Origin: Chiloscyllium plagiosum
Lineage: Eukaryota
Direction: 5' to 3'
DNA: 62,467 nt
Assembly: GCF_004010195.1 (NCBI RefSeq)
Contig: NC_057756.1
Span: forward strand, 8,450,456 to 8,512,922
The notes under the pieces are model-generated. The model was not told the origin of the DNA and searched no databases. It saw only the letters and a list, made by a program, of their open reading frames with translations. Of the stretch, positions 11,780 to 37,423 are shown in pieces. Numbering within the stretch: the first letter of the stretch is position 1; each line of letters begins with the position of its first letter. The position numbers and the translations under genes were made by a program.

Positions 11780-14610
11780 AACCCATGATTCCGTGAGTGA
11801 CCCAGAATCTGTTTCCAGACTCCCTTATGATGGGAAACATCCGCTCAGTATTTACCCTGTCAAACTCCTTAAGAATCCTACATGTTACAATGCGATCACC
11901 TCTCATTCTTCCCAAATCCAGTAAGTAGAGACCCAATTTCTTCAGCCTTTTCTTAAAAGATAATCCCTGCAATCCAGGGTTCATCCCAGTCAATTTTCTG
12001 TGAAATGCCCCTGATGAAATGACACATTTCCTTAAATAAAGGGACCAAAACTTCTGTTATTACTCCAGATGTGGCCTGACTCGCACTTTATAAAGTTACT
12101 CTCAGGTATATACTCCAAACAACTCCGTTTAAACTTGCACAGATGTTGTTGGAAATGCTCAGCAGGTCATGCAACATCTGTGAAGAAAAATCAGTTAAAG
12201 TTTAGGGTCTGGTCACCCTTCCTCAGATACGTTAACTCTAATTTCTTTTCACAGATGCTGCTAGACCTGCTGAGCTTTTCCAGAAACTTCTGTTTCTCAT
12301 CCTGGTTGACAGCATCTTCAGTTGTTTCAGTTTTAATATCCTTTAAACTTGCCATCTCTCCTATAGAATTTGTCATTTCCACCTTGGAAAAAAGATTCAT
12401 ATTTGTTTGGTCTCCCCTACCTGTGAAAAAGGAAACCAAGACTAGTCACCCTATCATTGCTCCTCATAATTTTATAAAGTTCGATAAAGCCACCGAAAGT
12501 GTCCAGTGCTGCAGGGAAATGGCCTCAGCCTATTCAGCCTCTCCCGATGGTTCAAATGTTCCAATACTGGCAACACCCAAGTAAAACCTTTCTGAACTCT
12601 TGCAAGTTTCCCAACATCTTTCCTATAGCAGGGAGACTGGAATTGAAAGCAGTCTGGGGATTCCAAAAGTGGCCGAGCCAATAAACTGTACAACTGAAAC
12701 ATGATCTCCCAACTCCTATCCTCACTGCACTGCCCAAAAACAGCTAGCAGACCGCACACCACCTTCACTGACCTGTCTACCTTCAACCACACTTTCAAGG
12801 AACTATCCACCCACACTGCATGGTCTGTTTGTCTGTCAACACTTCCCAGGAACTTATCATTAAGAGGTTGGGTCCTATTCTGGTAACATCTTTCTGAAAT
12901 CAGGGAGACCACAATTGAATGCAGTATTCTAAAACTGGCCTCAACAATGCCCTACTCAGCCACAACGTGACCTCCTAATCCCTATACTCAGTGACAGAAT
13001 CCCTACAGTGTGGAAGCAGGCCTTTCGGCCCATGAGACCATACCAACCATCGGAGCAGTATTCCACCCTAACTCTGTAACCTACCATTACCCAAAGCTAA
13101 ACCAGCTAACCTGCATGTCTTTGGAATTGTGGGAGGAAATTATGAGCACCCAGAGGAAGCCCATGCAGACACACAGGGAGAATGTGCAAACACCACACAG
13201 ACAGTGGAATCGAATCGAATCAGCAGATTCCATTCAATGTTCGTGTCCCAAATGCCACGTTCAGAACCTGATCTCCCTGAAACTCTACTTTCCAAGAACT
13301 ATACAGTTGTTCTGAGCCCTCCAGAGGGAATTAAGGTGAGGAGGAGAAAACAGGAACAGGGTTGAGTTTTAGATCTATAAAATAACTCTCCATCTTCCCC
13401 CTCTGTTCCCCCCGTCTCTCTCGCTCTGTCTGCTTCCCCCCTCCGTCTCCCCCCACTCTGTCCGTCGCTCCCCTCTGTCGGCCTGTTCTATCACCCCACC
13501 CCCGCCGGCCTGTTCCCCTTTTCTGTCAGCCTCCCCCCGTTTCCCCTGTCTGTTCCCCTCCTCTCTAATCCCACTTTCTGTCCCCACCCGTCTCTGTGCC
13601 GCCCTCTCTGTCACCCCGCCTCTTTCCCCAGCCATTTCTGTCTCACCCCTCTCGATCCACTCACCCCCTGTCTGCCTACCCTCCCTCCCAGTCCCCTAGT
13701 TCTGTACTCCCCCACTGCAGGGCAAATATCTTGTCTATTTACCGTATCCATGCCCAACCTGATTTTAAAAATCTCTTTCATGTTACCATTCAGCCTCTGA
13801 CGCTCCAGGGAAAACAGCCTATCCAATCCTGGCAACATGCTATAATTCTTTTCTGATCTCTTTAAAGTTTAAGAACATCCATCCGATAGGAAGGAGAACA
13901 GAATTATACGGAATATTGATTCAGCAACTTTTGCAATGTCCTGTACAGCCGCAATATGACCTCCCAACCCCTATACTCAATGCTCTGACCAATAAAGACA
14001 AGCAGACCAACTGCTGCCTTCACTATCCTATCTACTTGCTACTCTACTGTCAAGGAAATATGAACCTGCACTCCAAGGACTCTTTGTTTAGCAGCACTCC
14101 CCAGGAACTTACTATTAACTGTATAAGTCCTGCTAAAGTTTGCTTTTCCAAAATGCATCAGCTTGCATTTTTCTATGAACTCCTCAGCCCATCACCCATC
14201 TGATCCAGATCCTCTTGTACTCTGAGGTAATCTTTTGCACTGTCTACTACACCTCCCATTTTGGTGTCATCTGCAAACTTACTTAAAATACCTCTTATGT
14301 TCACATCCAAATCATGGATAGAAATAGCGAAAAGTAGTGGATCTAGCACCGATCCTTGTGACACCCCACTGGTCACAGGCCTTCAGCCTGAAAAGCACAC
14401 TCTGCCTTCTACCTTCGGGCCAGTTCTGCACTCCATGCGCTCTAACTTTGCTGACCAGTCTCCCATGAGGAACCTTGTCAAACACGTTACTGAAGTCCAT
14501 GTAGATCATGTCCATGCTCTGACCTCAGCAATCCTCTTTGTTACTTCTTCAAAAAAATTAAGTCAAATTCATGAGAAATTATTTCCCATGCACAAAGCTG
14601 TTCTTAGTAT
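11780..14610 (-). mobile_element. Cluster of CR1 fragments, with a Penelope-type hairpin (12135-12330), an HE1 SINE (12996-13215) and a pyrimidine-rich tract (13380-13690)
   Basis: SGVSQGSVLDPLLF..SKFADDTK; YMDFSNVFDKVPHGRLV; RLKKLGLYLL. Confidence 0.88.
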
Positions 14611-14671
14611 CCAGGATTTAACTCTGTACATTGGGGTCTGCGTTGCCCAATTATAGGTGTTAATATTCTGG

Positions 14672-14740
14672 ATGAAGTTCAAATACGCCAGCATTTTGTC
14701 AGTGACTCTGTATTGAGTCTTGTTAATGTCACCAACACAG
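14672..14740 (+). pseudogene. Broken signal-peptide-like exon
   Basis: ATG..MKFKYASILSVTLY*VLLMSPTQ ending at a strong CAG|gtgagt donor. Restoring one base gives MKFKYASILSVTxVLSLVNVTNT(G) with a phase-1 end typical of leader exons. Confidence 0.3.
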
Positions 14741-15117
14741 GTGAGTTCCTTTTGAAAGGCAGTCCCTGTATCTCCTGCCCACCAGGAAATAATTTAAGTG
14801 TCCTTACCTCTGGACTAGGAGGATCAGGCTCAGAGTTGTGTAAAAGCATCTTTGAAGAGGCTGATTAGTAAACCTGCCCAAGCCACCAGGCCATACTGTT
14901 TCCCAGCTGTCCCTGCCTGAGCCTCCAAACAGAACCTTCCTGTAGTTTCTCTCCTGTCAGACTCTCCCATTGCTCAGTTTGTCCAGGATTCCCTCCTGCT
15001 GCTGCACTGCTCCTGTCCCTCACTGACCTGTCCATCCCCCAGTGTCCTCCACATTCATTCATTGTTCACAATCCCATTGACCCAGTCCTCCAGTCATGCC
15101 CCCTCCAATCTATAGAG

Positions 15118-15388: not shown

Positions 15389-16423
15389 TATATTGGGCAG
15401 CAGCTGCTGTCAATCACCCGGACTCCTGTATGATCGGGAGCACGTGCCGTAGGAGGGGAGACAAATGCACGGGCGCAGTGCTGGCCAATTGTGGGACTAT
15501 GTGCAGCATAGGTCAGTGCCTGGGAAGGAGGCTGTGGGTGAGGGATTAATCTATCATTAGCAGCTTCATCCCTCTGGGAGCAGGACCCAGGGGAATGGCA
15601 CCTTTCTTGCTAACCTGACATGTGATCAGACTACAGTGGTGCAGCGTTTTGCAGAACGTTATCAGAACTCTTTTGTGAAGATTCAGGGTTGTTATGGAAA
15701 GGGACAAGGATGGGCCTGCAATTAGAATTCTAATTTGGGTCATTTTAGTAAGATGGGTCTTGGCCAGAGTGTGCAGGAAGCAGTGTATGCAGGATGGTTC
15801 TCATCAGGAGTTAGGAAACTGAATTCGAAGAGAGAGTGTGTGAGAACTGGGTGTGGAGGAAAGGAGTGGGGGCGATTTGTTTGGATTTCAGTTCACAGAA
15901 GAGAGAAATTGTGAGACTGAGGTNNNNNNNNNNNNNNNNNNNNNNNNNNNNNNNNNNNNNNNNNNNNNNNNNNNNNNNNNNNNNNNNNNNNNNNNNNNNN
16001 NNNNNNNNNNNNNNNNNNNNNNNNNNNNNNNNNNNNNNNNNNNNNNNNNNNNNNNNNNNNNNNNNNNNNNNNNNNNNNNNNNNNNNNNNNNNNNNNNNNN
16101 NNNNNNNNNNNNNNNNNNNNNNNNNNNNNNNNNNNNNNNNNNNNNNNNNNNNNNNNNNNNNNNNNNNNNNNNNNNNNNNNNNNNNNNNNNNNNNNNNNNN
16201 NNNNNNNNNNNNNNNNNNNNNNNNNNNNNNNNNNNNNNNNNNNNNNNNNNNNNNNNNNNNNNNNNNNNNNNNNNNNNNNNNNNNNNNNNNNNNNNNNNNN
16301 NNNNNNNNNNNNNNNNNNNNNNNNNNNNNNNNNNNNNNNNNNNNNNNNNNNNNNNNNNNNNNNNNNNNNNNNNNNNNNNNNNNNNNNNNNNNNNNNNNNN
16401 NNNNNNNNNNNNNNNNNNNNNNN

Positions 16424-16895: not shown

Positions 16896-19352
16896 AAATG
16901 TTTTCAACTATCCATAACCAGCCATACACATCACTGCTTCCCCTGTTTATCTTGGTCAGTTCTCCTCTCAAACACATGTAAATGGCTTTGATTGTGATTG
17001 TAGGGTGTGATTTAGGGTCACTTTAAAAATCCATCATCTCACAGAATTCCACTACACTACAATTTCCCAGAGGATATCTCAGTGTGACATTGCTCCTTCA
17101 CTCAGCTTCTTCACCCAAAGGTCAATCTGAGACAGTCACGTCCCTGGCCATTTGCACAATGTGTTATTCAAAGAAACACTGACACAAACATTCAAAGAGG
17201 AGTTTGGAGCATGTGCCAATGTGACTGTCTCAGCTTATACAAAGATTACAGAATCCCAAAGCGATCACAGTGCCTTTTCATTACACAGGAATTCATTGGA
17301 ATGTGTAACAGGGTTGAGCAATGAAATGCTGTCAGTCAGCCTAAAATCTGTTCTCCTGCTTGTGTTTTTGACATGTGTTACCCAGAATTTGCATTCAGGC
17401 TGATTCAGCTTCATCATCTGAGGCCAAATGCTTTCTCTGCAATCCCTTTGTTACCCATTACTGTCAGGGTTACCCATCCTGCACTCCCATTCTGCCTGAG
17501 ACGCCTCAAGGATGTGTACAATTGAATATTTATGTTCTGCCTTTTTTCTCCTCTAGCCGCATTTTTCTGGTGACTATATCTTATTTGTCTCTGTGTCACA
17601 AGTCCATCTACCTTATTGCAGATTCTTGTCCATTCCAAAAAAATAACATTGTAATTGACTTTTTCCCAGAATGTCCTGTCACAGCATAATTCGCTGATGT
17701 ACAGTTTTCGTTAAACTCTGTCCCTTCCTGTTTCTTCCTTCTTGTCTCCAGCCACATTCCCATGCTGTTCCGATGCGTCACCTTTTCTCTTTGGATTTGG
17801 AAAGCTCCATTCACCTAAACCCTGTCCCTGCATCCTCTCTGTCAGTTTAAAGCCCTGTCCATAAACCCACTGACATAATTTGCCAGTACACTGTTCCCAG
17901 CAGTGTTGTTTTTAATTCATTCATGAAATATTGCTGTTTCTGGCTGGCCAGCATTTCATGCCCACCCCCGAGCTGCCCTTGAACTGAGTGCCTTACGAGA
18001 CAATTAGAGAATGCAGTTCAGAGTCAACCCCATTGCTCTGGGTCTGGATTCATATGTAGGTCAGACCAGCTGCCTATCGCAGAGTTCCTCCCTGAAAGGA
18101 TATTGGAGCATATTACACGCTCCCTATGTGTAATATGCTCCAAACTCGGTAACATGCCCAATCCCAGTAACCTCATCCTGCATTCAGAACAATAATCTCT
18201 ATTTCTGTAGTTTTCCGCAATAACTACAGTCCACCCTGTCTCTGTAAAATCCCTGCCACCGGCATTAAATTCTGGATGAACAGTCTAGTGAGAGTAACAG
18301 TAGGCCATCGCCTGGCCCACTGCTAGCTCCCTCATCTCTGAGTAATGATCCCAGTGCACCATGAATCAAACGCCTTCATCTTGATAGTGGTTTGATCCTG
18401 ATACCTTCCCGCACTCTGGTTCTATCACACAGTCTCTCTCCATGTGGTATCTGTCACTGTGAGGGTCTAATTGCTGCTGGTGACTGCACCTTTTGCAGCT
18501 ACTCCAGATCCTGAGCCACCAGAATTCTCCACTCCAGGGAGACGAGGCAACACAGACCAGCGATGGAGACTGGGGTTTTCCAGATCTCTGTGGTACTCAG
18601 TGCCATTCTCCTTGTGTAACCCTCATTGCATCAATCTAATGTCCCATTCTGTCTATTTCTCCATCTCCTGCATGTATTTAGGATGTTCCTGACCCAATAA
18701 ACATCCCAACTGTTGGGTGTTTCATTCATCATCTCATTGAATGCAATTGGTCAGCCAGAGGGCAGGGAGATCTGGTTTCTTCAATAAATCTTGCAGCGAG
18801 GTAAGATCACTCACAGTGAACAGAGCAGAGCGAATTTAAGAGATCGAAGTTTTGTCCGGAAGAAATGACACAGATACAGTGCTGAAGGGTGAACACAGAG
18901 CATGATGGTCCCAGGCCCAAATCCCACTCTCTTGTTTGCTTTCATCTCTGCTGTACTGAGCCTTCCTCTGACCATATAGGAAGTTGACAGTTATCAATCC
19001 AGGCCTGTGCTGTCTTTGTGAGGATCAGGACAACAGAGGGGAAAGCAGGCCTCCCTTAAGAAGGTGGTATTGAAACCTGGGATCTTTCTGTTCTATATTC
19101 TCCCTCTCACACTGTCTTGTCGTGTGATAGAGTCATACAGCAAGGAGACATGCCTTTCCGTCCAACCCATCTGCGCCAGTGACATGAATGTTTGTAATTC
19201 CCAGAAAAGTTCCTTTTGCTGTAACCTCCACCCCTCCCATAATCCTGCTGTTTGTTTGAAACCTACTCCAATGCTGACGACACTCCCTATGTGTAATATG
19301 CTCCAAACTCGGTAACATGCCCAATCTCAGTAACCTCATCCTGCATTCAGTC

Positions 19353-20472
19353 CAATAATCTCTATTTCTGTAGTTTTCCGCAATAACTACAGTCGACCCT
19401 GTCTCTGTAAAATCCTCCAGCCTGGACCAAAATACCCACCTGTGTACTTTCCCCAAGCCCCAAGAGAACATGGTATCACTGTAACCTTCTGCAGGCCAGA
19501 TCACATTCCTGCCTCCTGGCCTATAGCACCACATGACCTCTGTAACCATCCCCCATCCTGACCGGACTCCTTATCTGTGTAAACACCTCCAGACCCTTTT
19601 CCAACTGCAACAACACTTCCCATCTATGTGTGCTCCTCCCTGTACCTCAAACACCCTCTCTTTGTGTAACTCAGCAGTTTAGGGTGGTTCACTGGTGGAC
19701 ACTGCTGCCTCACAGCACCAGAGACCCAGGTTCAATTCTAGCCTTGGGTGACTGTCTGTATGGAGTTGGCACATTGTCTCCGTGTCTGCATGGGTTTCCT
19801 GCCACAGTCCAAAGATGTGCAGGTCAGATAAATTGGCCATTCTAAACTGACCGAGCGTTAGGTGCATCATTCAGAGGGAANNNNNNNNNNNNNNNNNNNN
19901 NNNNNNNNNNNNNNNNNNNNNNNNNNNNNNNNNNNNNNNNNTACAATAATCTCTATTTCTGTAGTTTTCCGCAATAACTGCAGTCCACCCTGTCTCTGTA
20001 AAATCCTCCAGCCTGGACCAAAATTCCCACCTGTGTACTTTCCCCAAGCCCCAAGAGAACGTGGTATCACTGTAACCTTCTGCAGGCCAGATCACATTCC
20101 TGCCTCCTGGCCTATAGCACCACATGACCTCTGTAACCATCTCCCATCCTGACCGGACTCCTTATCTGTGTAAACACCTCCAGACCCTTTTCCAACTGCA
20201 ACAACACTTCCCAGCTATGTGTGCTCCTCCCTGTACCTCAAACACCCTCTCTTTGTGTAACTCAGCAGTTTAGGGTGATTCACTGGTGGACACTGCTGCC
20301 TCACAGAACCAGAAACCCAGGTTCAATTCTAGCCTTGGGTGACTGTCTGTATGGAGTTGGCACATTCTCTCCGTGTTTGCATGGGTTTCCTCCCACAGTC
20401 CAAAGATGTGCAGGTCCGGTGAATTGGCCATTCTAAACTGGCCAGAGTGTTAGGTGCATCATTCAGAGGGAA
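19353..20472. repeat. ~530-bp direct duplication either side of gap 19881-19941; each copy ends in an HE1 SINE
   Basis: 19353-19880 aligns to 19944-20472 with scattered substitutions; a partial third copy lies at about 18114-18252. Confidence 0.9.
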
Positions 20473-22779
20473 ATGGGTCTGGGTGGATAACTCTTTGGAG
20501 AGTTGGTGTGGAGTGTTGGGCCGAAGTGCTGTTTCCATACTGTAGGGAATCTAATAAAATCTAAACTCTCCCTCTACGTTACATATTAGTGGCCCTAAAA
20601 ATATCCCTCTAACAAGTAAACAACTCCAAATCTCCCAGTGTCTGTAAACTCCGACAGTTCCAACATCCCTCCTTATCGGTGTAACCTGAAACCCTCTCAA
20701 AATGTGGAGAGCCCACAATCCTCCCTTTCTGTGTAATCCTCTCAGGTCCCTGCATTACTCTCAATCTGTAGTACCCAGTCCATTGCCTGTGACTCTCCCG
20801 ATTCAGTTCCTGCAAGACTCACTATCTATGTAACAGTCTCCCATCGCTCTCACCCACCCTGTCAATGTAAGCTCCTCTAGTATCTCCATCCATCTAATCA
20901 TCTCCATAACCTTCTCCAGCGCTTGTAGCCCTTTCTGAGTAAATGTCACCCTCATCTATAACCCTCCCTATGGCAGTTCCACAGATTCATCACCCTCTGG
21001 CTGAATACATTCCTCCAGATCTCCATTCTAAAGGGTCGTTCCTTCACTCTGAAGCCGTGCCCTTGGCCCCTAGTCTCTCTGCCTAGTGAAAGCATCTTGC
21101 CCCCTCCCCCTCCCATCCAATCCATCTAGGCCCCTCAGTATTCTGTAAGTTTGAATGAGATCCTGCCACCGCCGCCTCTGAAACTTCATCAAGTACAGGC
21201 CCAGTTACTTCACCTGCATTTCATCTTGGGCTCTTTCTTGTAAAACTAGTTCTTGTACCCACTCGCATCCTTTGTCCAGACTGTTAATGTATAACAGGTA
21301 CAGCGTGGTCCCAACACTGACCCCTGCGGAGTTCCCCTCATCACCAGTTCCCATCGTGATAACGACCCCTTTATACCTACTCTGTCTTCTGCTAATCAAC
21401 CAATCCTCTATCCACACCAAACATGTTGTTCTGAAACTGAAATTTCATTTCACAAACCCTGCTGGATTTGTTTTCCATCTGGCTTTGAACAAGTAGATAA
21501 AAGGGAGGAATGGTTTGTCAGGATTTTCAGAAACCTTTCAACAAGGTCCCACCGAATAGGTGGATAAGCAATATTAGCAAATGTGGAATTGGAGGGAATG
21601 TACTGGCATGGATTGGGAATTCTTTAACAGAAAACTAAGAAGGAATAAATGGATTATTGCTTGACCCCTAACTAATCACAAATGGATTCGAGGCATTTGA
21701 TGGATGTACATCGTCTGCTTCCATGTTTGTTGCTGACACAGAACGAGATGGGAATGTGGCTTGTGTGGAGGAATCAAAGGAGACATTAACAGTCCATGAG
21801 TTTCCCTTGTACAAATACATTGATGGGATGTGGCCATCACTTGCTTGGCCATCATTACCTTCCAATCTGTAATTACCTGGAGAAAGTGGTGGTGAGCTGC
21901 CTTCCTCACCCATTGCGGTCGTTTGTGTGTAGGGACAGACACAGTGCTGGCAGGATGGAGCATGCTTTTGAGGGCACCTTGGAAATGCTGGTGTTCCCGT
22001 GCAGCTAGAATTCATGTCCTTCCAGGGTATAGTTGCTCTGGGTTTATGAAGTGGTGCTGAAATGGCCTTCCTGAGTGACCTCAGTGCTGCTTGTAGATCT
22101 TTTATTTATTTATTTATTCGTGGTCATGAGCATTGCTGTATGTATTGTTGATTTGGAGTTGTCCCTGAGAAGGTATTGGTGATCTGCCTTCCTGAGCCAC
22201 TGCACCAGACATTGGAACTGTTGTTATCTGTGTACCCTCCAGCAGGCGCTACAACACGCCTCACGTCTGCAAATGCATACAGAAAAAGCAGCTCTCCGTG
22301 GATATGTGACATCCTCCTCTGCCGACAGCTCTTATTGTTCATCAGAATGTCTCACCACTTCCATTCCCATATGTGCTCGTGATCTCTCACATTTCTTTAT
22401 TCTTGTTTAAACTTCTGATCACCTATTACCTCTTCCTTTCTAAATTTGTAACCCCTCAATATCGGTAACTCTCCATATAACTGTATTCAATGACAGCACA
22501 GGTTCCCTTCCTTAAATCTCTCTGAATTACAGCGGCTGGTTGTGCGAAATTGGTACTTTTCATCCTCCATATCCATCTTAGCTCTTCCAGCCCCTGCAAT
22601 CGCACTATTTGGAATGCTCCCATTCTCTGTATCTCCTTATGTCCTGAGGGTCCTTGAACACCACGAGTGCTTCAAACATCGTTAATCCCCCCCACCCCAG
22701 TTACTGCGAGTCTTCTAACTCTGTAACATCCAACAGTCTCCAGTACCTTACAACACTTCCTAACTATCATTACACGTCC

Positions 22780-22950
22780 CTGGGATTACATGTCCCTGGG
22801 AGTCAGAGAAACGGTGAGCCTGTGAGGGAGCAGAGTGGATGGGAGTTGAAGGATTACACGTACCTGGGAGTCACAGAGACGGTGACCCTGTGAGTGCTCA
22901 GAATGGAGTGGGAGCTGGGGGATTACATGTACCTGGGAGTCACAGAGACA
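22780..22950. repeat. Short degenerate tandem repeat
   Basis: Recurrent gattaca(c/t)gt(a)cctgggagtca(c)aga units. Confidence 0.65.
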
Positions 22951-23209
22951 CTTCTCTTTGACGGCGGCCTACCTGCACTGAGATTGAAAGAAGTGCATGA
23001 GACATCACAGAAAAAAGCTGGAGGTCCATTGTTCAATAATAAACTGTTATTAGCAACTGTCTGTAATTACTGTAAGTTAGCAAATTTACTTTTTTAACTG
23101 CTGAAAGAAGGATTGAACACAGAAAAAAAAGTAAAAACGAAGGAAAAGCAATAGTCACAGGGGAGTCAGGAAAGTGAAGATGGTGTCAGCCTGTCTGTAC
23201 TTCCAGGAT

Positions 23210-24780
23210 AGTGGGGTTAAGAATGTCACTGTATCTGCAGGACATTCGTCTGGGGGACAGTGAGGAGTCAAAGGTCATGTCCATGTTGGTAGGAATGACC
23301 TGGGTAGGAAGGGTGAAGTGGTCTGGGAATCAGAATTTATGTAGCTAGGGGAATAGTTAGCAAGCAGGATCTCAGATTTAGAAATCCCTGGAATACGCCC
23401 AGTGCCATGTACAAGTGAGAACAGAACTCGGAGTTTTAGACAGATGAGAGTTTGACTGGAACGATGATGCAGCAGGAAGGGCTTCAGATTCCTGGGACAT
23501 TGGGGCTGGTTCTGGGGAAGGCAGCAACTGTACAAGCTGGATGGGCTAACGTGACAGAGCTGGGACTGAATTTCTCACAGGGTTTTTTAGAGACGGATTG
23601 AAAATAACCTGGTGTGTGCTCAGGATCCAAAAAGGAATAGTAGAGGAGACTACCAGGATTCTCAAAATAATGGGAGATACAGTTGGTACTAAGTTACAAG
23701 AACACGTTTATCAGTGGAAGATGGAGTAAGAAAGAAAGCCTTAATCTGAGGTACTCTGCATGGACATGAATACTCGGAGTGTGGGGAATTCCAGATGCAG
23801 ATTGCTGTGTGGAAATCTGATGTACTGATCACCGAGAGCTGGTTTAACGAATGGCAGGACTTGGTGTTAAATATTGCTGTGTATAAAGGATTCCAAAATG
23901 ATAGAAGGGAAATGAAAGGATGATGGTAGAAGTACTGGTTGAGATTAGCGTTAGTTAAGGAGTCCAAGAGAAAGAGGATCCATCCAAGGACAGAATGAGT
24001 TTGGTGGAGCTACAGAACAAAAAGTATACAGTTACACTGTGAGGTACAGTCTGTCGGCCATCAACCATTGGAAAAAATGGAGAGAATAAATATGCAGGGT
24101 CATTTGAGAGCGATGAAAATACTACAGATTAGTTATATTGAGAAACTTAATTTATCCAGATATTGACTGGGTTGTCGGTGTTGCAGGGTCACGAGGGTGA
24201 CTATCCCTGGATTACATGGAGGAGAGCTCACTGAAGGAGTATGTGTCCAGCCCAAGAGAGCATGTACTGTTGGACCTGATCCTTGGGAAAAGGAGAGGCA
24301 AGTGGATCCTTTGTCAGAAGGGGAAGATTTTGGGTCAGAGTGATCATTTTATTGTGAAGTTCAGGATGATGGTAGAGAATGATATACCAATAATTGAGAG
24401 TGAGAAACATTAGTTGACTGGGAGCAGCCTGCAATGGGGCAAGAATGAAGCTGGGAATTTTTGACTGCAACACCAATTTGGTCAGAAAATGACAAACTGA
24501 ACCATGAGCTCCCTGCAAAGAGGAGATGGTTTGGGTCCAGTCGAGGAATGGTCACTCAAATAGGAAAGGCAGGATTAACAAATCCAATGCTCTCTCGGTG
24601 ACAGTGAAGAACAATAGAATTTGTGTCAGATAGAGGATCGAATTGGGAACCAGGAGGAATATTGGAGGTCCATAGGGAGATGATAGGACAGAAGGGAATT
24701 ATGGGAAAACTGAGAACCACCATGGAGCTGTCTCAGAATCCTCCTGTGGACCCCTCATAATGAACGTGTTAAAAGATTGA
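23210..24780 (+). mobile_element. Old CR1 5' region (ORF1 esterase-like part and endonuclease)
   Basis: gtccatgttggtaggaatgac (VHVG.ND), EGFRFLGHW-like segment, ITESW, LLDLILG, LGQSDH. Confidence 0.8.
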
Positions 24781-27294
24781 GTAAAGCTGCATCGAAATTA
24801 GAAAGAGGATTTCTTCATGGAAAAAGATATTCGCAAGTAGTTAAGATGCACTAAAATGCATTGTAGCTGCATGTTTGACTAAAACATTCAGGAGGCGTTT
24901 GGATGATTTTTGATACAAAAAGAAATGTGAGGATTTGAGTGAAGGACGAGATCATGACTCAGCAAAGAGTTCAGTTGAAGAGCTGGTGTAACCATGATTG
25001 GCCAAATAACACCCTTCTTTGCCATAAGGCGTCTGTGTCATTAAGTGTAGCGTCTTGAGAGTTCTCCAAATCCATAAATACACCGATTTTGTAACTTTGC
25101 TGATCCTGTATGATACATTCTAATCTCTGCAACCTCCATCAACCATTGTAGCCCTCCTTATCTCTGTTACTCATACAAGCCATATATACCTTATTTCCCT
25201 CGAATCTCCTCCAGTCCCGATAACCTTTTCTCTCTGTAAAATATTTCTCAAGTCTTTCCGGATCTCCCCTTCTCTGAAACTACTCTGATCCATAGAAACC
25301 TAATATTTGCAATCTCCTCCAGACCATACAACAATCAGCGTTACCAACCCCCTCCTGCCGTGACAGATCCCAGTATCTCCATAAACTCCAGCCGATAGAG
25401 TGTTCATTATGTCTCCAACTTTCTCCAGCATCGCCAACCCTGCCCAACTCTTTTTTTTACTCCAGTCCCGACAATTTTCCCTGTTGTGTAACCTACTCCA
25501 ATGCCTAACCAGCTGTGTAACATCCTCTAGTCCCGACCATGCTCCCGATTCTGTAACCATCTTCTGCCCTGACACAGATCACTGTCTCTCCCACCTCCAG
25601 ATTCTAAATCCATCCCGATCTGGAGAAACACCTCCAGCCCTCCCTCTCTCTGTAATATCTACAAGATGTTAAAACTGAAATAACTCCATAGAGGCTGGTA
25701 ACCTATTACCAAATCCATTTTTATTTCTATTTGCACGATACATGGCACTGACCCACGCTCGATCAGAGCCGGCTCCTAAAGTGAACAGAGCCCCTGATGC
25801 TTCTGCTTATTTCTGAGCCACGATTCCCTGATTGGAGCAGGTTAACAGTCCCAAATGGGAACTTGCATTTATGAGGTTTACCTGACTGACCCCATTCCAA
25901 TCACTATAAAAACCTTCCACGTATCTCTAACGTTCATTAACACCTACAAATCTTTTCGGCTCTGAAAACTCCTCCAGCTTCGCCAATGCTGTCTCCGTAA
26001 AATTCTCCAAGGAAATTCTCCTGTACCTTTCAGTAGATCCTCCTGTTATCAAGCTCCTGCAGGACCAATGCCAGCTTTTTTTTTCTGTTTTCTGCAAAAA
26101 CGCTCGACCTCAACGTCCTCCACCCAGAACGTCGCTTACTAATCTCTCACCGCTTCCAAAAACTCGATCGCCATTTGTGTGTGACCTTCTCTATAAGGAG
26201 GAAGGGGGTTTTGAAGCAGGGAGCTTCATAGGGCATGGGGACCTTTACACAAATAGGAATTTTTGTAGAAACTAGTGGGTTTACAGAAGTGAGAAGGGTC
26301 ATGGAACATGAAGGATGTTCCAGAGACTGGCAGTTTATAGGCACAGTGGACAGAATGTTTATTTCTGGTGCAGAGACACAGAGAGCTATATCATGTTATA
26401 AATTGTTCAGGTAACATTTTTAACAGGTTTCGGGGAGGTTTTCTCTCTACAAGGCTCTTGCAGCCAGAATATTGATCTGGCTGGTCCAGCTCCATTTTCA
26501 CTTCAACGAAAACCTAAAACTTTCCTTGTCTTTGTAATCTCTTTCCGCCTCTAGAACTACCCATATCCCTGTAATATCCCCCAGCCTTCACACACCTTCC
26601 TATCTCTGTAACCTCCTCTGGACCCTACAGCCATCCTGGGCTCTTCACTTGCTGCCATCCCTGAATTCCTTACGAATGTTTAAACAAGGCCAATGAAATG
26701 GTAGCTTCAAATAGTATGAACCAGCTCAGATGTAGCTGGAGTTATTGAGATGTGGCTGCAGTGTGACCATGAATGAGAACTGGATAATCAAAGGTTATCC
26801 CCATTTCTACATGAAGGACAAAAAGGTCAACACAGTGAAGTACACTGTGTAAAAAGGATGGGATCAGTATTATTGTGATGCTCATCAGTTTACACACTGC
26901 TCCTCCCTGCCCTCTCCCCTCATCCCTGCGTATTGATCCTGTCAGATATTGGTAACCTTTGAAAACTTCAGAAAATAGCACAGTATAGAGGAGATCACTG
27001 TCTGCATTGGACATGAAGTAACGTTTTGTAAAAGCCCTAGTTCTGTCTCCCGAAGACTACAGGCCTTCAGGTGCAGAACCAGGCACCTTTGTATAATGGT
27101 TTGAGAGTTTCTGCCTGTAATCTGCTTCCATGTGTGACTCCCAGATCCCTACCATTCTCTGAGAGAAATAGCAACTTGCTTCACCACTTCTCTGATATTT
27201 TAACCAATTATATTTATGCCTTTGTTCAATCTGGATGCAATAGTTTCAAGTTCCTTCTAACCGCTTGTCTGTCACTAAATAATTGCTCTTGAGG

Positions 27295-27330
<36 letters not shown>
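27295..27330. repeat. (GT)n(GA)n compound microsatellite
   Basis: Directly visible. Confidence 0.95.
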
Positions 27331-27332
<2 letters not shown>

Positions 27333-29174
27333 GGTCTGATTGATTGGGCTTTGCTTGTTCCTGTTTAACAGCTCGATGTACTGATCAGACCCCTCTTCTT
27401 CCTATGGAACAGGCAGGAGAATTGAATGGGCTGTCCCTCTTCTTGATCATTAGTTTCGATGGGCTGAATGTCTTCCACATATCCGTGTGTAACCAGCTTG
27501 AGATGCTGAATGAGCTCCTCTTTTAACTGTGCAAATGTGCAGTGTCTGGCCGTGTTGTTACATGAATGTTACTGACACTTTAACAGCCAACGCTGAATGC
27601 TATCAAGGTCTTGCTGCACATGGACACAGACTGGTTCAGGAGCTGAGGGGGAGCAAAATGTTCTGAACATTGTGTGATCTTCAGTCATCATCCCCACTTC
27701 AGATCTTATGATGGGGAAAGACATTGATGGAGTAGCCGAAGATGTTTGTGCTGAGGAGGCTAACCTGAGGATCTCCTGTGGAGATGTTCCAGAACTGAGA
27801 GGACTGTTGGCCACTGACCACAAGCATCTTTATTTGTGCTCTGAAAGACCCAGACCATTGGGAGGTTACACCTGATTCCCATTCAGCTCAAATAAGTAGG
27901 TGATCCTGATGCCATCCTCAGTCAAATACTGCCTTGACCTCAAAGCCATTCACCCTTTCCTGAGCCCCTGTGTTCACCGCTTGTTCATATCAATAGGTGA
28001 CGGTGTATGTGTAGGAAGTGTTTTCCTCAGAGGGGAATTGCTGTCAGGAATTATCTGGGCTAGAGAGTTGTGGGGGCTACATCACTGAAAGTATTTACGG
28101 AGGAGGTAAATGAATTTTGAACAGTCAGAGAGCTAAGGGGTGCGAAGAATTGGGCATTACCGAGGAGTGAATGTCAACAGTAAATCAGCCATAATGGTAT
28201 ACAATTGTTTGACGGTGCGAACTACCTGATCCTGTTATTTTTTGTTCTCATATTCTGTAATTACAAAGTTAATGGTTGTATTTTTCCGGGAAGTTATGTT
28301 ATTGAACTTTGTAATCAGAGAGAGAAATGTATTTTGTAAGTAATCTCTGGGTGAAGGATGGGGTCTGTATTCAAAGTGAATCTGGGACTATAATATGACC
28401 AACAAATGAAGCACAAGTTGCAGAGAGGAGACACTCTGTAAAGGGACAGGAGGTGTATTTCGAACCCAGCCTGGATTTCCATATAACATTTTCCAACCCA
28501 CACCAAACCATGTGAGACAGTCTGGAGGGACTGAATGAGATCCTGTGTTACTGTGGACCAGATATTTGGAGCGAGTGGCCTCCATCTGTTCCTTGCATGA
28601 GCTGTGAGGGGTTGAGTGGAACATAGGAACATAGCACTGAGCAGCAGGAGTGGACCATTAGACACTTTGTCACCGCCTCACCACGCACAAAGATCATGGA
28701 TGATGTTATTGAGGTCTCAGCAGCACCTTTCCGTCTGTATACCGTCTGTATACCATTTTACTACATTCACTTGTCTGTCAAATGTCAAGAAAAACAAATT
28801 TGAATAAATTCAAATATCCAGGGCCAATAAACTTCTGGGGAAGGGAATTCTCACTTGAACAGCCCTTTGAGAATTACCAATTTGTGTTCCAGCCAATGTT
28901 GGAAGGTCACTGTTTCTTTTTCCAGTCCCACTTCTCCACTGGTTACACCAGTCTTAAATGCAACCAATTTTGTGATGTGACCAATGATATAGGTCTCAGA
29001 GTAGGTCATTTTCAAGGAAAATGTGAGACACAGAAAGTTGAACTCATAACAAATGGTAAAATGATAGTCTCTCAAACGTTATTCTGCCTTTGATGTTATT
29101 CTGCTCGCATAAGCTTCTGATAGTGGGATTTCTTACTGGAACAGTTGGATTTGGCTGAATGTCCTTTGTTTCAG

Positions 29175-29237
29175 GCAGTGGAGAGATTCCAATGAATCCT
29201 CACCAGGAATCCTTCACAAGTGGTAAAGATAACTCAG
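29175..29237 (+). CDS. Candidate 63-nt exon xSGEIPMNPHQESFTSGKDNS
   Basis: gtcctttgtttcag|GCAGTG...AACTCAG|gtactt; only the phase 1->1 frame is open and it is compatible with 32395-32411. It overlaps an alternative decayed-TM reading starting at 29114. Confidence 0.35.
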
Positions 29238-29443
29238 GTACTTTATGTTATCACACTTTGCTATCGGGTGGAACAAAGTAAGAGAGAGGGATCAATCAGC
29301 TGCTGCTTCTCAGGCAGGGAACATTTTTCTCCCTCTCTGTGTTGGAACATACAATAATGTCAACTGAACACCAAACTGGGCCATGTGTGCTCTCTGGAGC
29401 AATCACTGAAAAACCTGATTATGGATTATATGCAGGGGCATCA

Positions 29444-29875
29444 TGGTCTGGGAATCAGAATTTATGTAGCTAGGGGAATAATTAGCAAGCGGGATCTCAG
29501 ATTTAGAAATCCCTGGAATACGCCCAGTGCCATGTACAAGTGAGAACAGAACTCGGAGTTTTAGACAGATGAGAGTTTGACTGGAACGATGATGCAGCAG
29601 GAAGGGCTTCAGATTCCTGGGACATTGGGGCTGGTTCTGGGGAAGGCAGCAACTGTACAAGCTGGATGGGCTAACGTGACAGAGCTGGGACTGAATTTCT
29701 CACAGGGTTTTTTAGAGACGGATTGAAAATAACCTGGTGTGTGCTCAGGATCCAAAAAGGAATAGTAGAGGAGACTACCAGGACTCTCAAAATAATGGGA
29801 GATACAGTTGGTACTAAGTTACAAGAACACGTTTATCAGTGGAAGATGGAGTAAGAAAGTAAGCCTTAATCTGAG
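29444..29875 (+). repeat. Near-identical copy of 23319-23750
   Basis: About 430 bp with only a handful of differences; ORFs 23275-23535 and 29403-29660 share most of their sequence. Confidence 0.95.
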
Positions 29876-30614
29876 AATTATATCATTTTATTTTAGTTTA
29901 GGGGATCAAAACTGGACATAGTGCGTCAGGTTTGGACTCAGCAATGCCCTGTACAGGTGCACTAAAACATTCCTGCCATTAAACCGATACCTTTTGCCAA
30001 AAACCGCATCATTCCACTTACCTTCGAAATCACTTGCTGCATCTGCAGATGGACTTCATATGATTCCTGTCACAAGAACATGGAAACCGCCTGTATCACA
30101 GAGTTCTGCAATCTCTCTGCACTTAAACCGATTTATCTTTCATGCCAAAAATAGACATCTTACCTTATGTTATTTCTGCTGAAGCTTAGCTCACTCACCT
30201 TCCCTGTCTATGACTTTGCAGACTCACAACGTCCATTTGACGAGACATTGAATGACCATCCAATTGAGCTCCAAGCCATTCCCTCCCCTTCTTCCAGATC
30301 ATTGAAAAAGATTATTGATCACTGATAACCTCTCAGTGTTCTCTGAGGCACTCCATCAGTTATATCTTTGCTACTTGAAAATAAACATTTGTCTCTACTC
30401 TCTATTTCCTGTTACCGGCAGCTTCCCTGTTCCTGTGTAGCCGTTCAGATGGGTTGAATGTCCTCCTCCTGGGCTGTGTAATGTACTCAACGAGCTGAAT
30501 TATTTCATTCTATATTCCTGTGTAATTCCTTAGGGGGCAGAATGGTCTCCTCCTGTCTCATTGTAATGATCTTGTCTGTCTAAATGGGGTGGTCCCCTAC
30601 CATGTAACTGCCTC

Positions 30615-30890
30615 AAGGGGTGGATTGAGGGAACAACACATTGGGGGAGGGACAGCAGTATATCTCCGTACCAGCATTGAGGGGTGGATTGAGGGAACAA
30701 CACATTGGGGTAGGGACAGCAGTATATTTCTGTCACAACATCGAGGGGTGGATTGAGGGAACAACACATTGGGGTAGGGACAGCTTTATATCTGTAACAA
30801 CATCGAGGGGTGGATTGAGGGAACAACACACGGGATAGGGGCAGCAGTATATCTCTGTAACAGCCTCGAGGGTGGATTGAGGGAACAACA
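30615..30890. repeat. Minisatellite, ~63-bp unit, about 4.5 copies
   Basis: gaggggtggattgagggaacaacacattggggtagggacagcagtatat... repeated. Confidence 0.9.
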
Positions 30891-32394
30891 TGCGTCGTAG
30901 GGTCAGCATTGGCCATTTGCCGGCACCGTTCAGAATGCTCATGGCTGATCCGTGTGTGTCTGTCCATCTGTCTCCCGTCTGTTTCCAATAACATTGATTC
31001 TCCAGTCCAGCAAAGACCGTCAAGCTCAGCCTTGGATATCTTCAATAACTGAGTCTTCACTGCTCCCTGAGGACGAGGACACTAAAGGTAGCACAACGCT
31101 AAAGGGAAAGGGGCGTCCTTCTTTCTTTCTGGGACCTGTTATTTTGAAACTGAACATCAAATCACTACCTCTTTTCAGACATAAGGACAGAATAATTAGG
31201 AATAAACGTAAACCATTCCGGACTCCAAACCTGTTCCACATTGCCACTGACCCTTTCAAATCAAATATGTATCCAACCCAGCATCTGCTGCTGTCTCAGG
31301 AAGAGAATACCTGATAGCATAACATCACATGAGTATGAAAAAAGGAGCAGATTGAGGTAATTCGGCCTATCGAGTCCTATAAGCCGTTCAATAATTTCCT
31401 ATATGTTCCTCAACCGCATTCTCCTTGCATTTCCCGGAGAATCCTTGATCCCCTTATAAATCAGTCTTATCTATTTGTATCTTAACGACACTAGTGTCTG
31501 TGCCTCTGTGTGTCTGTAGGTGTGTGTGTCCATCTTCTTGTCATCTGTGTATTTATGTTTCTTTGTCTTCCTTTCTGTGTATTAGCCGGTGTGTTTCTAT
31601 TTGTGTTTGTGTCTATTTGTGTGTGACTCTATATATCTCTGTGTGTTTCTACGTGTGTGTATGCCTATCCGCTTGTATGTATTGTGTTTGTTCGTATATT
31701 GGGGTGTTTACTAATAATTCTGTGTCTGCAAATCTGTGTAATGAGTTATCGTTTTTTTTGGGGGGAAGGGGGAGTGAAAGGACTGTCGTTGGAACTTCCA
31801 GTGGGTTTAAAGTGAGAATTGTCTTTCACTGAGCACTGGTCCTTGATCGGTCAGTGGGACATGGATGCTTCAGACACTCCACACGAGACATCACAGTTCG
31901 CTCCATCTCGTACTAGGGTCCTCCCCACATGGTGGGGGTAGGCGGGTGAGAGAATGGATATTGGGCACTCCACCATCCGGCTTGGCCGTTTCTGTCCTAT
32001 TCCAGGCTGTTTCTCTTGGAATGGGAAAAAGGGAGGGAGTTAGTGAGGGCAGGAATGGTTGGCCCTGTTTTTAGTGCTGGTGGAGGTGGGAGTGGGGGGA
32101 ATTGTGATGTGTCTGGAACGAGTCAGTCGACAGTCTTGAATCCATGTAGTATTATTAGTGTGGGGGGCATTGAGTAGGTGCCAGAGGAAGTGTGGGAAGG
32201 GAGTGGTTGAATTCAATAGTAAGAGTGGTAGTGCCAGACCCTTATTTAGAGATAGAGCATGAGGATTGTCTGGGGGTAGGTGCTATAATAGATATACATT
32301 GAGTGTAAGGGAGCAGAGAGAATACAGTGACCTTTATCCTGACACAGTGGGGAGGATATTGATGCTTGTCCTGTATTGATGGACATTACTTCAG

Positions 32395-32411
32395 ATCATC
32401 TCAGTGTCGAG
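32395..32411 (+). CDS. Candidate 17-nt cytoplasmic mini-exon (D)HLSVE upstream of the ITIM exon
   Basis: ttacttcag|ATCATCTCAGTGTCGAG|gtgaga; phase 1->0 fits the phase-0 ITIM exon, but a 500-N gap lies between them. Confidence 0.4.
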
Positions 32412-32979
32412 GTGAGACTCCCTGAATGTCTTGTGCACGTCTATCACTAATAATGACACAGAGCTGTCCGTTAGATTCCACAGAATCAGTTTAGGTAGAG
32501 CTTACAGATAGCAAGGAAAGGCAAATATTGTTGTGTTATATATCGAAACCAAAGTGGTTGCAGAAAATCTGAGCATCACAAGCTCTGGAAATTAGATATG
32601 CAAGTATCATGGATACTGCAGTTTTATTGGTTGATCTCAAGTTGCATCTAAACTGCATTAACTAAGTGACTGCTCACGCTGTGAGAAATAAATTCTGTAA
32701 GTGTTTCTGAGGTGGGTTGAAGAGTATTAGGTGAAGTAAAATAGAGAGCAGGTTATTTTGGATTTAGTGTTGAGTGATAAGAAGGATGAATTAATAACCT
32801 TGCTCTGAAGCAGCTTTTAAGGAATAGTGACATTAATAAGTTGCATTTTACACGGTGGCTGCATACAATATAGAATGCTTGAACATTCTGGTCAAATACC
32901 ATGGTAGCCTGGAGGGTCCAGTTCTCTCCAGTAAATTGGGAAAGTACAATATAACATTCAGTGGAATGCCACCAATGGT

Positions 32980-34650
32980 TGTTAGAGTCATAGAGTCCGA
33001 CAGCATGGTTACAGGCCCTTCAGCCCAAACTCGTCCATTCCGATCAAAATGTCCACCAACGCTAACCCCAATTCCCTGCCTTTGCCCTGTACATTTCTAA
33101 TTCTTTCCTGTCCTTGCATTTGTCCAAATGCATTTTTACATGTTGCGAATGTTCCCCCCTCAACCTCTTCCGCTGGCATATCATTCGATTTGTGTATCAC
33201 CCCTGTGTGAAAAGCAGTTGCTCCTCAGGTTCCCTCTTATTGTTTCCCCTCTGACCTTAAACTGATGCCCTCTAGTCCGAAATTGCCCAACCCCTGGGAA
33301 AAAAATGTGAGTGCATTCACTCTGTCCATCCCTCCCATGATCATATACACTTCTGTCAGATTCCCCCTCAGCCTCATACATCTTAAGTAAAAATTCCTAA
33401 CTTGCCCAACCTCTCCCTATAACGCAGACCATTGAGTCCTTTGCTACATCCTTGTAAGTTTCTTCTGCACTCTTTCCAATTTAATAACATCCTTCCTATA
33501 GCAAAGTGAACAAAACTGAACATAACGCTTCCAGTATGGCCTCACCAGCATCCTGTATAACTGCAACGTAACTCCCTAATTTCGATACTCAGTAATATAC
33601 ACTGATGAATGCCAGTGTGCCGAAAGCTTTCTTCACAGTCCCGTCTACCTCTAAATCAACTTTCAGAGAACCATACACCTGAATTCCAAGGTCCCTCTGT
33701 TCCACTACACTCCTTAGGAATCATGAAACTCCAACCTTGATTTGACTTTCTAAAATGCAAGAACTTACATTGATCGATATTAAAATCCATTTTCAATTTC
33801 TCAGCCACTTCTCCAGCTGATCAAGATACTGCTGTATTTTCTGAAAAAAACTGATAACCTTCCTCAGTCTCCATAATGCTGTTTATTTTCGTGTTATCTT
33901 CAAACTTACAAATCATGCCTGTACATTCTCATCTAAATCATAGATATATGTAATATGTAGTGGTCCCAGCACCAACTCATGAGGCATTCCACTAGTCAGA
34001 GGCCTCCAGTCTGACAAGCATCCTTCCACTATTACCCTCTGCTTCCTCCCATCAAGACAATTTTGTATCTAATTTGGCAGCTCCTCCTCAATTTCCTGCG
34101 ATCTAACCTTCCAGAGCAGCGTACCATGTGGAACCTTATTGAAGGCCTTACTGGAATCTATATAGACTACGTATACTACCCTGCCCTCCTCAACGTTGCT
34201 GGTCACATCATCAAAGAATTCAAACAAATTTGTGAACCATGATCTCCCAGGCACAACACCGTGCTGAGTTTGATGATGGGCTTTTACCTGGAACATTGAT
34301 TTTCCTGTTCCTCGGATGCTGCTTGATCTGCTGTGCTTTTCTAGCACCACTCTAATCTTACTCCTAATCACACCCTGTCTTTCCAAATGCATGTATATCT
34401 TATCTCTCAGAACCTCTTCCAGTAAGTTACCTACTACAGATTTTAGGTTTACTGGTCTATAGTTGCCAGGTTTACCTTTGTCGCCCTTCTTGAGTAAGGG
34501 CACAGTATTAGCTACCCTCCAGTCCACCGAGACCTTACCCATTGGTCAGACATGATGCAAAAATATCAGCCAGGGCTCTCGCACTTCCTTTTCTGTCCTC
34601 CTGCAGTGTTCCTGAATATATCTGGTCAGGACCAGGAGATTTGTAGAAAT
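32980..34650 (-). mobile_element. CR1 LINE (RT to 3' end) with a Penelope-terminus insertion at about 34270-34360
   Basis: DWRVANTVPLLKKGDKGKPGNYRPVNL; VVYIDSSKAFNKVPHG; the insert interrupts the QHG motif region. Confidence 0.92.
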
Positions 34651-34699
34651 ACAAAGTCTGAAAAATACGTCTATTTATTTAAAGTACAAATACCAAAGA

Positions 34700-37423
34700 A
34701 AGGGAAAGTGACACAATGATTTTTAACATAACAAATTCGAAAATGTATTAATCATAGCAAGTGGCTTCAGAAGAATTTATTTCATTGTGGAAACCTGAGA
34801 ATTTTCAGAAATTCCCGATCCAGAAACGAGGGCCATGAAACTGATACGGAAATCAGGAAGAGAACATGAATGCTAACAAACAGGAACAAAAACACTGCAT
34901 AAATCTACAATCTGTATTTCAAAGGAAACAAAATAAAAGCAAGGTCAAATATGGAAATTTGTAATCGGGAGAGGAGAGCTTATTGTGAAACACAGGGAAA
35001 TGGTCAAGAAAATAATCAGTTACTATGCATCTGCCTTCATGGAGGAAGATCCACAAAGTCACCTAGTAATACCAAGTGATCATGTATGGATTGTTCAACT
35101 AAAGACATAAAGTCAATTTATATCAGTAACAAGGTAGCATTTGAAAGTGTAACTGGATGGAGCATTGCTAAGTCTGACAAACCTGATGAACTTCATATTA
35201 AAATGTCAGACATAAACCACCAATAGAAGTATTGATTGCACTGTCGATGACTGCGTTTTATTTTCCTGTGCATTCGGCAGAGGCTGGAAGCCATAGCGGA
35301 TAAATGGAAGTTAGTGAACGTGGTCCAAGTACTTTAGATTAATGGAAGGGATCCAAGCGTCTAGAAAGGGAAGAAGACATAGTTTGGAGAACTTCCGACC
35401 AATTAACTTGACATCTGCAGGGAAACTGTTAGAATCTATTATGCAGCATGTGATATTGAATATTTAGAAATTAATAGGATCAATGGAGAGAATCCACATG
35501 TATTTCTGCCAGATGTCTAACTCGATGTGCTATTAGTTGTTAGACACCATCTACCACCCCCTGAGAAAAAGAACAGAAAGTTACTTCACCACAGGAAATA
35601 ACATCACCACAGGAAATGACATCATCAACCCAAACATATAAAAAGAAAGCAGGAATTTGTAGCTTCGCTTCGCCTGAGGTCCACTGTAGTTGTTACCTAG
35701 TAAGGTAACGGGAAATGAACCTTCCAGCTCAGCGAGCAAACCTGCATCCATTGTGTACAGATTTGGTGACCGAAACTCAGAAAGAATATACCGACCACAG
35801 AGGAAGTGCAATGAACATTCTCCAGATTAATCCCTCAGATGGTGAGATTGCCTTATGAGGAAACTCGGCCTGTGTTCTCCAGAGTTTCAAAGAATGAGAG
35901 GTGGGTCACAGTGAAATTTAGAAAATTCACAAAACATATGACAAGTTGGAAATTAACAGAACGCTTCCCTCGCTGTCTATTCCACATTCAAGGCAAATAA
36001 TGACAAGATAAGGAATTGGCCACTTAAGAACGTAATTTTGAGGAAATTCATCACTCGGTGAGAACTGCCTAAAACAGGGTCATAGAAACCTGCTGGCAGG
36101 ATAAGATTAGGGATAATCCCCAGACATTCTGCAAGTGTGTCAAGCAGAAATGAATAACAAGGGAACAGGTGGAGTCATTAGTGACTTGTCAAGTTGCATC
36201 CAAATCAACTTAATGTTTGGAGACAGAGGGTAATGGTTGAAGGCTGTTAGTGTGACTGGAAACCGGTGTCCAATGGTGTATCACAGGGATCAGTGTTGTG
36301 TCCCTTATTATTTGTGATTCGGAGGTGCTGGTGTTGCACTGGGGTGGACAAACCTAAAAATCACATAACACCAGGTTATAGTCCAGCAGGTTTATTCAGA
36401 GGCACGAGCTTTCAAAGCACACAACCACCTAATGAATAAGCAGTGCTTCGAAGTTAGTGCCTCCGAATAAACCTGTTAGACTATAACCTGGTGTTGTGTG
36501 ATCATTAACCTTATTATTTGTGGTAATCATAAATGATACAACTGTAAACATAGACGGGGGTGATGGGAGTGTGACAACTAAGTTTGTGTTTGATACAAAA
36601 ATTGGTCGGGTGGTTGGCAGTGAGGAGGAAGGCCTTATGTTACAGGAAGATACAGATGGAAGGTCAGATGGGCAGAGCAATGGCAGATGTAATGTCACCC
36701 TGATACACTTTGGATGAAGGAACTGGACAGGGAGTACTCAATGAATGGCAGCACACGAGGAAGCTCAGAGGGTGTTTCTCCAAACTTCCCTGAATGTGAC
36801 TAAATAGGTTAATACACAATTTGAGAAAGCATAGGGTACCGTAAACATAATCTTTATTCATCAATGCATCGATTATAAGAGCTATGCGGAACTTTGGTTT
36901 GGCCAAGATTGAATACTGTGTGTAGTTCTGGGAACCACATTACAGGAAGGATCTGATTGTAGTGTGTGCAGGCTGGGGTGGTGGTGGGGGGGGGGGGGGA
37001 GCTCAGAGGAGATTCACCAGGATGTTCCCTGGGATGGAGTATATCAGCTATAGAGAGAGGCTGGATAAGCTCGGGTTGTTTAGTTTGGAGCAGAGAGGCT
37101 GTGGGGGATGTGATTCAGAAGGATAGGATTCTGAGAGACATGGACATGGTGGACAGACAACACCTGTTCCTTTTAGTCAAAGGGCCAAGAACAATGGAGC
37201 ACATTTTAAAGTGAAGGGTTTGAGATTTGGAGGGAATTCAGGATTGATTTTCACCCAGAGGGTGTTGGGGTCAGGAATACACTTCCTGAGAAAGGAGTTG
37301 CCATGGTAACTTCACAACCATGAGAAAATACACGGCTGTGCACGTGAAATGCCATAAGATTCACGGCAACGGGTCTTGTGTCGGAAAATGGGACTAATGT
37401 AGACTGTGCTGTATTTCTGATGG
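34700..37423 (+). mobile_element. Nested decayed CR1 fragments, with a Penelope-like terminus (35540-35750) and a palindromic element (36325-36510)
   Basis: YASAFMEED-like, RPINLTS-like, GVSQGSVL and TKFVFDTKIG pieces; aacaccaggttatagtc...gactataacctggtgtt inverted repeat. Confidence 0.8.

Follow-up and report, generated by a model that had tools for sequence, protein, structure and literature searches.

In a 62,467-nt stretch of the Chiloscyllium plagiosum genome (NCBI RefSeq assembly GCF_004010195.1, contig NC_057756.1, forward-strand positions 8,450,456 to 8,512,922; hereafter the window), the + strand between 18.7 and 31.3 kb appears to carry a long-dead, intron-containing pseudogene of a receptor of the common-gamma-chain (gamma-c) group. 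We consider it probable that the relic of a class I cytokine receptor is real and that it is a decayed member of the group comprising IL2RG, CRLF2 and IL13RA which adjoins the last exon of an unrelated inhibitory receptor. From what is known of the family, the product of the ancestral gene would have had a cytokine-binding module of two domains, one transmembrane (TM) helix and a JAK-recruiting Box1 tail; in class I cytokine receptors this tail recruits a JAK kinase. Each piece 3' of position 18800 carries stops or frameshifts and no open spliced frame was found, so that presumably no receptor is made from the relic today. The adjoining exon, at 40258, is most readily viewed as the end of a live gene for a nectin/PVR-family receptor with one V domain and two tyrosines in the consensus of the ITIM (immunoreceptor tyrosine-based inhibitory motif).

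Two pieces of the relic carry the homology argument. Nine relic-related queries were compared with a PDB sequence set of 177635 sequences at an E-value cut-off of 10. The open exon at 18682 returned two matches, both to gamma-c, at residues 2-27 at the start of the membrane-distal domain (D1), with E 1.4. The region 26948-27100, translated with stops as X, returned 13 matches, and all 13 were gamma-c, aligned without gaps over 33 residues of the second domain (D2), with a best E of 0.35. Both pieces lie on the same strand in the right order, 8.3 kb apart, and for gamma-c as a target chosen beforehand, division of the domain E-values by the library size gives counts expected by chance across the window of 0.14 and 0.03.

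The exon at 18682 is the strongest piece. A sequence-only reading of this DNA, made earlier, had quoted a series of peptides, all of which are present on the + strand where it placed them, and had described an open 119-nt exon ending in phase 2, which was recovered exactly. It holds 39 open codons and starts in phase 0. All 3419 GT and 3876 AG sites were ranked with a matrix of textbook splice-site frequencies; on this scale its donor is in the top 0.3% and its acceptor in the top 6.3%. The exon has the first Cys pair and the C-x-W motif in a first D1 exon that ends in phase 2, with a C1-C2 spacing 2 residues below that of gamma-c. Loose C-x(7-11)-C-x-W motifs occur 12 times in the six frames of the window, and only the one at 18682 has exon-shaped splice framing.

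The remaining pieces follow in the order expected of such a receptor, and each shows decay. The sequence-only reading had proposed a phase-2 acceptor at 22243, which would open a possible second half of D1; tandem phase-2 acceptors are found at 22243 and 22246, in the top 4-6% of AG sites, but a frameshift is needed to read on from them, no clear donor is visible by eye, and neither gamma-c in PDB nor a cytokine-receptor family in Pfam was matched. The D2-like piece at 26946 has an acceptor in the top 8.6% and a donor in the top 26%. The next piece ends in WSEW (28567-28578) followed by Pro, a single base away from WSEWS. Together with its upstream Cys, it is the sole C-x(2,6)-WS[EDN]W site in the six frames of the window, yet such a site is present in 426 of 8104 shuffles. 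Its donor ranks in the top 14%. A phase-0 segment from 28450 had been proposed for it, but the acceptor there is poor (top 45%). By eye, what precedes 28450 could be more of the D2 coding region, starting after an AG that lies before 28319, which would give a 285-nt block of phase 1-1; this longer reading had no PDB or Pfam support.

The TM-like stretch is hydrophobic as had been noted (mean hydropathy 1.84) and is flanked by a donor in the top 3.9% and an acceptor in the top 18%, but it is interrupted by a stop, its phase is 0 rather than 1, and it is near chance, as 410 of 22944 windows (1.8%) reach a hydropathy of 1.6. IPDSK at 31215, read earlier as Box1, is present, but the acceptor at 31179 does not put it in frame, and [IV]PD[PS] occurs 7 times on the + strand and 3 times on the - strand, which puts this piece alone at chance level. 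The leader-like open reading frame (ORF) at 18563, proposed as the start of the gene, is indeed hydrophobic but ends in a stop, had no Pfam match, and its membership is doubtful; like the 22243 piece, it is close to what chance would give. Further upstream are open frames at 14608-14868, with a consensus-like donor near 14742, and at 17131-17403. As a leader or an extra N-terminal domain these found no support in PDB or Pfam, and the PDB matches of 17131-17403 were unrelated.

The sequence-only reading had taken the order of the pieces as its main support and the intron phases 1-2-1-0-1 as part of the family signature. Of these phases, the relic agrees at the phase-2 intron and at its last donor (phase 1) and disagrees at its first acceptor, in phase 0, and the phase-0 intron is doubtful. 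The strength of the order depends on how strictly the motifs are defined. A strict ordered chain was found in 3 of 8104 shuffles and an exon-shaped loose C-x-W with a downstream WSxW in 261 of 26680, whereas the loose chain by itself (C-x7-11-C-x-W, WSxW and Box1 in order) is common in shuffled sequence, as detailed below.

The ITIM exon at 40258 has an owner of its own. A search with its 42-residue protein gave three matches among five candidates, all in carpet sharks: Hemiscyllium ocellatum (95% identity), Chiloscyllium punctatum (93%) and Rhincodon typus (79%). The H. ocellatum match is a protein of 232 residues and that of the whale shark one of 227 residues, which NCBI names TIGIT-like, while the C. 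punctatum match is an 87-residue fragment of TM helix and tail whose cluster includes a 232-residue form. The corresponding NCBI entries are LOC132833951 (H. ocellatum), XP_072409623.1 (C. punctatum) and XP_048476551.1 (R. typus). NCBI labels the shark owners either 'uncharacterized' or 'TIGIT-like'. In the full-length gene models among the homologues P0006, P0008 and P0012, one V-set domain and a TM helix are followed by exactly the 40258 exon, so that V-set, TM helix and ITIM-consensus tyrosines, the features of a nectin/PVR-type single-V receptor, are all found in the homologues. Against PDB, the V domain matched nectin-2 and nectin-1 best (E 4e-12 to 1e-10), and PVR, CD96, CD226 and TIGIT more weakly. 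TIGIT and PVRIG bind nectin-type ligands and act through SHP-type phosphatases. By analogy, the owner most likely binds a nectin-type ligand, recruits SHP-type phosphatases and dampens lymphocyte activation.

Assembled contigs point the same way. Those of 4 of the 24 listed runs were aligned to 26400-41000, and the results are those among the matches listed. In run X10, a contig of 2025 nt at depth 34 begins to match at 40256 with its base 662 and shows 1 mismatch over the 745 nt aligned. In run X7, which comes from another organism, a contig of 1462 nt begins to match at 40256 with its base 532. At least 661 nt of the former and at least 531 nt of the latter precede the start of the alignment and match nowhere in 26400-40255 among the matches listed. 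Contigs of two organisms thus leave the genome sequence at the 40258 acceptor, as a spliced transcript would. The 663 nt before the exon correspond to 570 nt (190 codons) plus 93 nt. X10 depth in four relic bins was 0.73, 1.39, 0.93 and 0, where 6-11 would be expected had the X10 contig included relic pieces.

Over the relic itself, an X1 contig (27018-27273, identical) and an X7 contig (26942-27200, ∼90%) pass unspliced through the 27098 donor among the matches listed. These contigs show related DNA in two organisms and not a spliced product. Raw single-cell reads of run X16 (2% of the run) gave no listed joint at the relic sites; at 80% likeness their alignment was swamped by repeats. X7 depth was flat at ∼14 over three bins in 27861-29321, which hold the WSEW and TM pieces, and ∼1 at the Box1 bin; this flat depth may reflect unspliced RNA, DNA or repeats.

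Features of the window discussed in the text, in 5' to 3' order
Feature	Position	Strand	Remarks
Assembly gap, exactly 500 N	15924-16423		5' of relic
Leader-like hydrophobic ORF, 18 codons, TAA-terminated	18563-18619	+	Relic membership doubtful
First half of membrane-distal cytokine-binding domain (C-x7-C-x-W)	18682-18800	+	Open 119-nt exon; strongest relic piece
Candidate second half of D1; one frameshift gives two Cys 12 apart	22243-22370	+	Weak; 3' end undefined
D2-like piece, 4 stops	26946-27098	+	33-residue ungapped alignment to gamma-c D2
D2-like piece ending in WSxWS-like motif and phase-1 donor	28319-28603	+	5' limit 28450 or 28319
TM-like piece	29114-29237	+	Contains stop; phase 0 not 1, needs frameshift; weak
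Box1-like piece, IPDS at 31215	31179-31268	+	Out of frame with its phase-2 acceptor at 31179
Assembly gap, exactly 500 N	37424-37923		Between relic and ITIM exon
Terminal exon, two ITIM-consensus motifs (IVYTSV, IVYSVL)	40258-40386	+	Separate nectin-family TIGIT-like gene, outside relic

The D2-like pieces are the least orderly part of the relic. With an IL2RG leader that we take to be 22 residues long for converting mature positions to codons, the gamma-c alignment at 26948 spans human codons 198/199 without an intron in the window. These codons form the exon 4/5 boundary of IL2RG, as placed by the c.594+5 variant in the available part of PMC7897653. The relic may therefore have two D2-like pieces, or a D2 without the internal intron. 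The latter would suit a more consequential interpretation, that the relic is an unrecognised extra gamma-c/CRLF2/IL13RA paralogue of cartilaginous fish, with a D2 lacking the phase-0 intron, lying inside or beside the TIGIT-like gene and perhaps intact elsewhere; we regard this as unlikely.

The former would suit pieces left over from two tandem copies, or from a partly processed copy, instead of one gene. This would be a sub-case of the pseudogene reading and seems a rather doubtful one. It would account for the presence of two D2-like pieces, each seemingly devoid of an internal phase-0 intron, as in the boundary-crossing alignment just described, and the poor 28450 acceptor is in keeping with it. 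In the intron interval 28880-29103, one X1 contig is ∼89% alike and two other X1 contigs ∼100%, which hints at a second related copy, with a repeat as another possibility. Against this, the DNA of the 26946 and 28319 pieces shows no significant similarity, since equal scores are reached by 42-73 of 391 window tiles and by 74-183 of 1000 shuffles, and the gamma-c match at 26948 falls short of significance and is lost when the query is lengthened.

The interpretation of the locus as a gamma-c-group pseudogene next to an unrelated receptor exon has to be weighed against a number of adverse points. No relic match is significant singly, and seven of the nine relic-related PDB queries gave no gamma-c match, among them the alternative frame at 26946 and the WSEW piece (28319-28603), neither of which matched anything. 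The 26948 match was gone when the same frame was queried at greater length, its register differs from the one read earlier, and its role overlaps with that of the 28450 piece. Among the Pfam matches of 5, 9 and 11 window pieces in three rounds, no relic piece had a cytokine-receptor family. The intact paralogue or orthologue that the sequence-only reading had proposed to look for did not turn up in protein searches, two of them word-based and one a full HMMER run, in which the short and decayed queries give protein and profile comparisons low power: the word search with the WSEW piece had zero candidates, that with the 18682 exon had five, none at E 10 or better, and the two matches of the HMMER search were both repetitive junk ORFs. 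ESM Atlas with the 18682 exon gave a best score of 0.87 to bacterial clusters and was uninformative. The loose motif chain appeared in 3016 of 8104 shuffles (37%), and the strict motif was adjusted after the data had been seen. The 18682 acceptor is in phase 0, whereas intron 1 of human IL2RG is in phase 1, as given by the c.116-1 acceptor variant in the accessible portion of PMC7897653. As for the ITIM exon, none of the listed runs that contain it, X10 and X7 among them, is recorded as RNA, and the 5' parts of the X10 and X7 contigs are known by length alone.

Many of these points would be explained if the relic were a string of motifs arisen by chance in intronic or intergenic DNA rich in repeats, with the ITIM exon still belonging to the TIGIT-like gene. 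The absence of any significant E-value or homologue, the near-chance TM and Box1 pieces and the inconsistencies of phase and register among the pieces all fit such a string. What makes it improbable in our view is that two separate pieces match gamma-c alone among 177635 sequences, and in order, the second of them in a register which the earlier reading had not chosen. In addition, the top-0.3% phase-2 donor stands where the receptor family has one, and the C..WSEW site is both unique in the window and downstream of it. The verdict of the sequence-only reading, a class I cytokine-receptor pseudogene, is probably right, given two gamma-c PDB matches, the exon shape and the motif chain, although no search was significant.

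Its suggestion that the ITIM exon belonged to the relic did not hold: a cytokine receptor spliced, now or ancestrally, onto the two-ITIM exon to form an inhibitory cytokine receptor would fit the shared strand and order, the phase-0 start of the exon as a last exon after Box1 and the absence of its usual upstream exons from the sequenced window, and a minor isoform is formally possible given contig joints taken from those listed for 26400-41000 alone, but the exon follows a nectin-family TM exon in three species, contigs of two organisms join it to non-relic sequence outside 26400-40255 with X10 relic depth far under expectation, and the relic is broken upstream and separated from the exon by a 500-N gap, which together make this reading extremely improbable.

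The position of the two elements relative to each other depends on the assembly. Repeats are frequent in the vertebrate DNA of the window, which contains seven N gaps. The equal, round sizes of the two 500-N gaps suggest scaffolding placeholders of unspecified real length, and the spacing between relic and ITIM exon is accordingly only as reliable as the scaffold join. No leader, V or TM exon of the owner was found in the sequenced bases of the window. Its 5' exons would lie either upstream, in which case the relic is nested in a last intron of more than 40 kb, or in unsequenced DNA at a 500-N gap; the gap at 37424-37923 may conceal upstream exons of the TIGIT-like gene.

Two duplications were seen within the span of the relic. 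A 529-nt direct duplicate (19353-19880 and 19944-20472, 96.6%) flanks a 61-N gap and resembles an assembly overlap, and a 432-nt duplicate with 99% identity (23319-23750 and 29444-29875) lies within relic introns and would be a recent repeat insertion or local duplication. Beyond the ITIM exon, an AT-rich 20-bp satellite is present at 47343-47730 and 49190-52335 in ∼20 and ∼158 copies that are 68-70% alike. Further on, the minus strand carries what look like 3' exons of another single-pass receptor, oriented towards the ITIM exon: a TM exon (59757-59675) that the 59009-59674 gap cuts, an exon of 47 nt carrying a YINI motif (57349-57303) and a 30-nt exon with a tyrosine (54796-54767), the latter two with consensus donors. 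A Pfam search with these exons gave no match. They are possibly part of an immune-receptor cluster.

As it stands, the locus has limited weight, being a probable pseudogene of a known group beside the last exon of a receptor for which NCBI has models in three sharks already. If the paralogue interpretation were true and the gene intact in other sharks or rays, it would represent an orphan cytokine-receptor chain; an intact orthologue would add a new branch to the early history of the gamma-c, TSLPR and IL-13R receptors and a candidate partner for the type-2 cytokines of sharks. Through its owner, the ITIM exon points to a nectin-family, two-ITIM, checkpoint-type shark receptor. The literature searched, which included few subscription papers and no supplements, held no description of this relic locus or of a shark class I receptor pseudogene, and no dedicated study of shark TIGIT or PVRIG.

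Among known systems, the relic is most like the group of IL2RG (CD132), CRLF2, IL13RA1/2, CSF2RA, IL3RA and IL5RA, with which it shares a C-x-W exon ending in phase 2 and D2-like, WSxW, TM-like and Box1-like pieces in order, and gamma-c provides the sole PDB matches of two of its pieces. It differs from the gamma-c group in its stops and frameshifts, in a C1-C2 spacing shorter by 2, in WSEWP for WSEWS and in a first acceptor of phase 0. The phase-0 intron of D2 is also not evident in the relic, and the parent would be some member of the group. According to the accessible part of PMC7274943, elephant shark has Il2rg, and some fishes have two paralogues, in some cases on one chromosome.

An ITIM on a class I cytokine receptor, which had been called very unusual, has a precedent in IL-4R alpha, which carries one at Y713 according to the available text of PMC2757875. 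IL-4R alpha resembles the proposed hybrid in this respect and differs from it in that a lone motif closes a long signalling tail, whereas the hybrid would have an ITIM-only tail; it is unrelated to this locus. The owner of the ITIM exon, with one V-set domain, a TM helix and a tail with tyrosine motifs, resembles TIGIT, PVRIG, CD96, CD226 and the nectins, of which TIGIT and CD96 are listed as inhibitory nectin/PVR receptors in the part of PMC13262535 available to us. Its assignment to TIGIT is an automatic NCBI name; its V domain matches nectin-1/-2 (E 1e-11) more closely than it does TIGIT (E 4e-4), and it differs from the PVR family in having two ITIM-consensus motifs in a single last exon.

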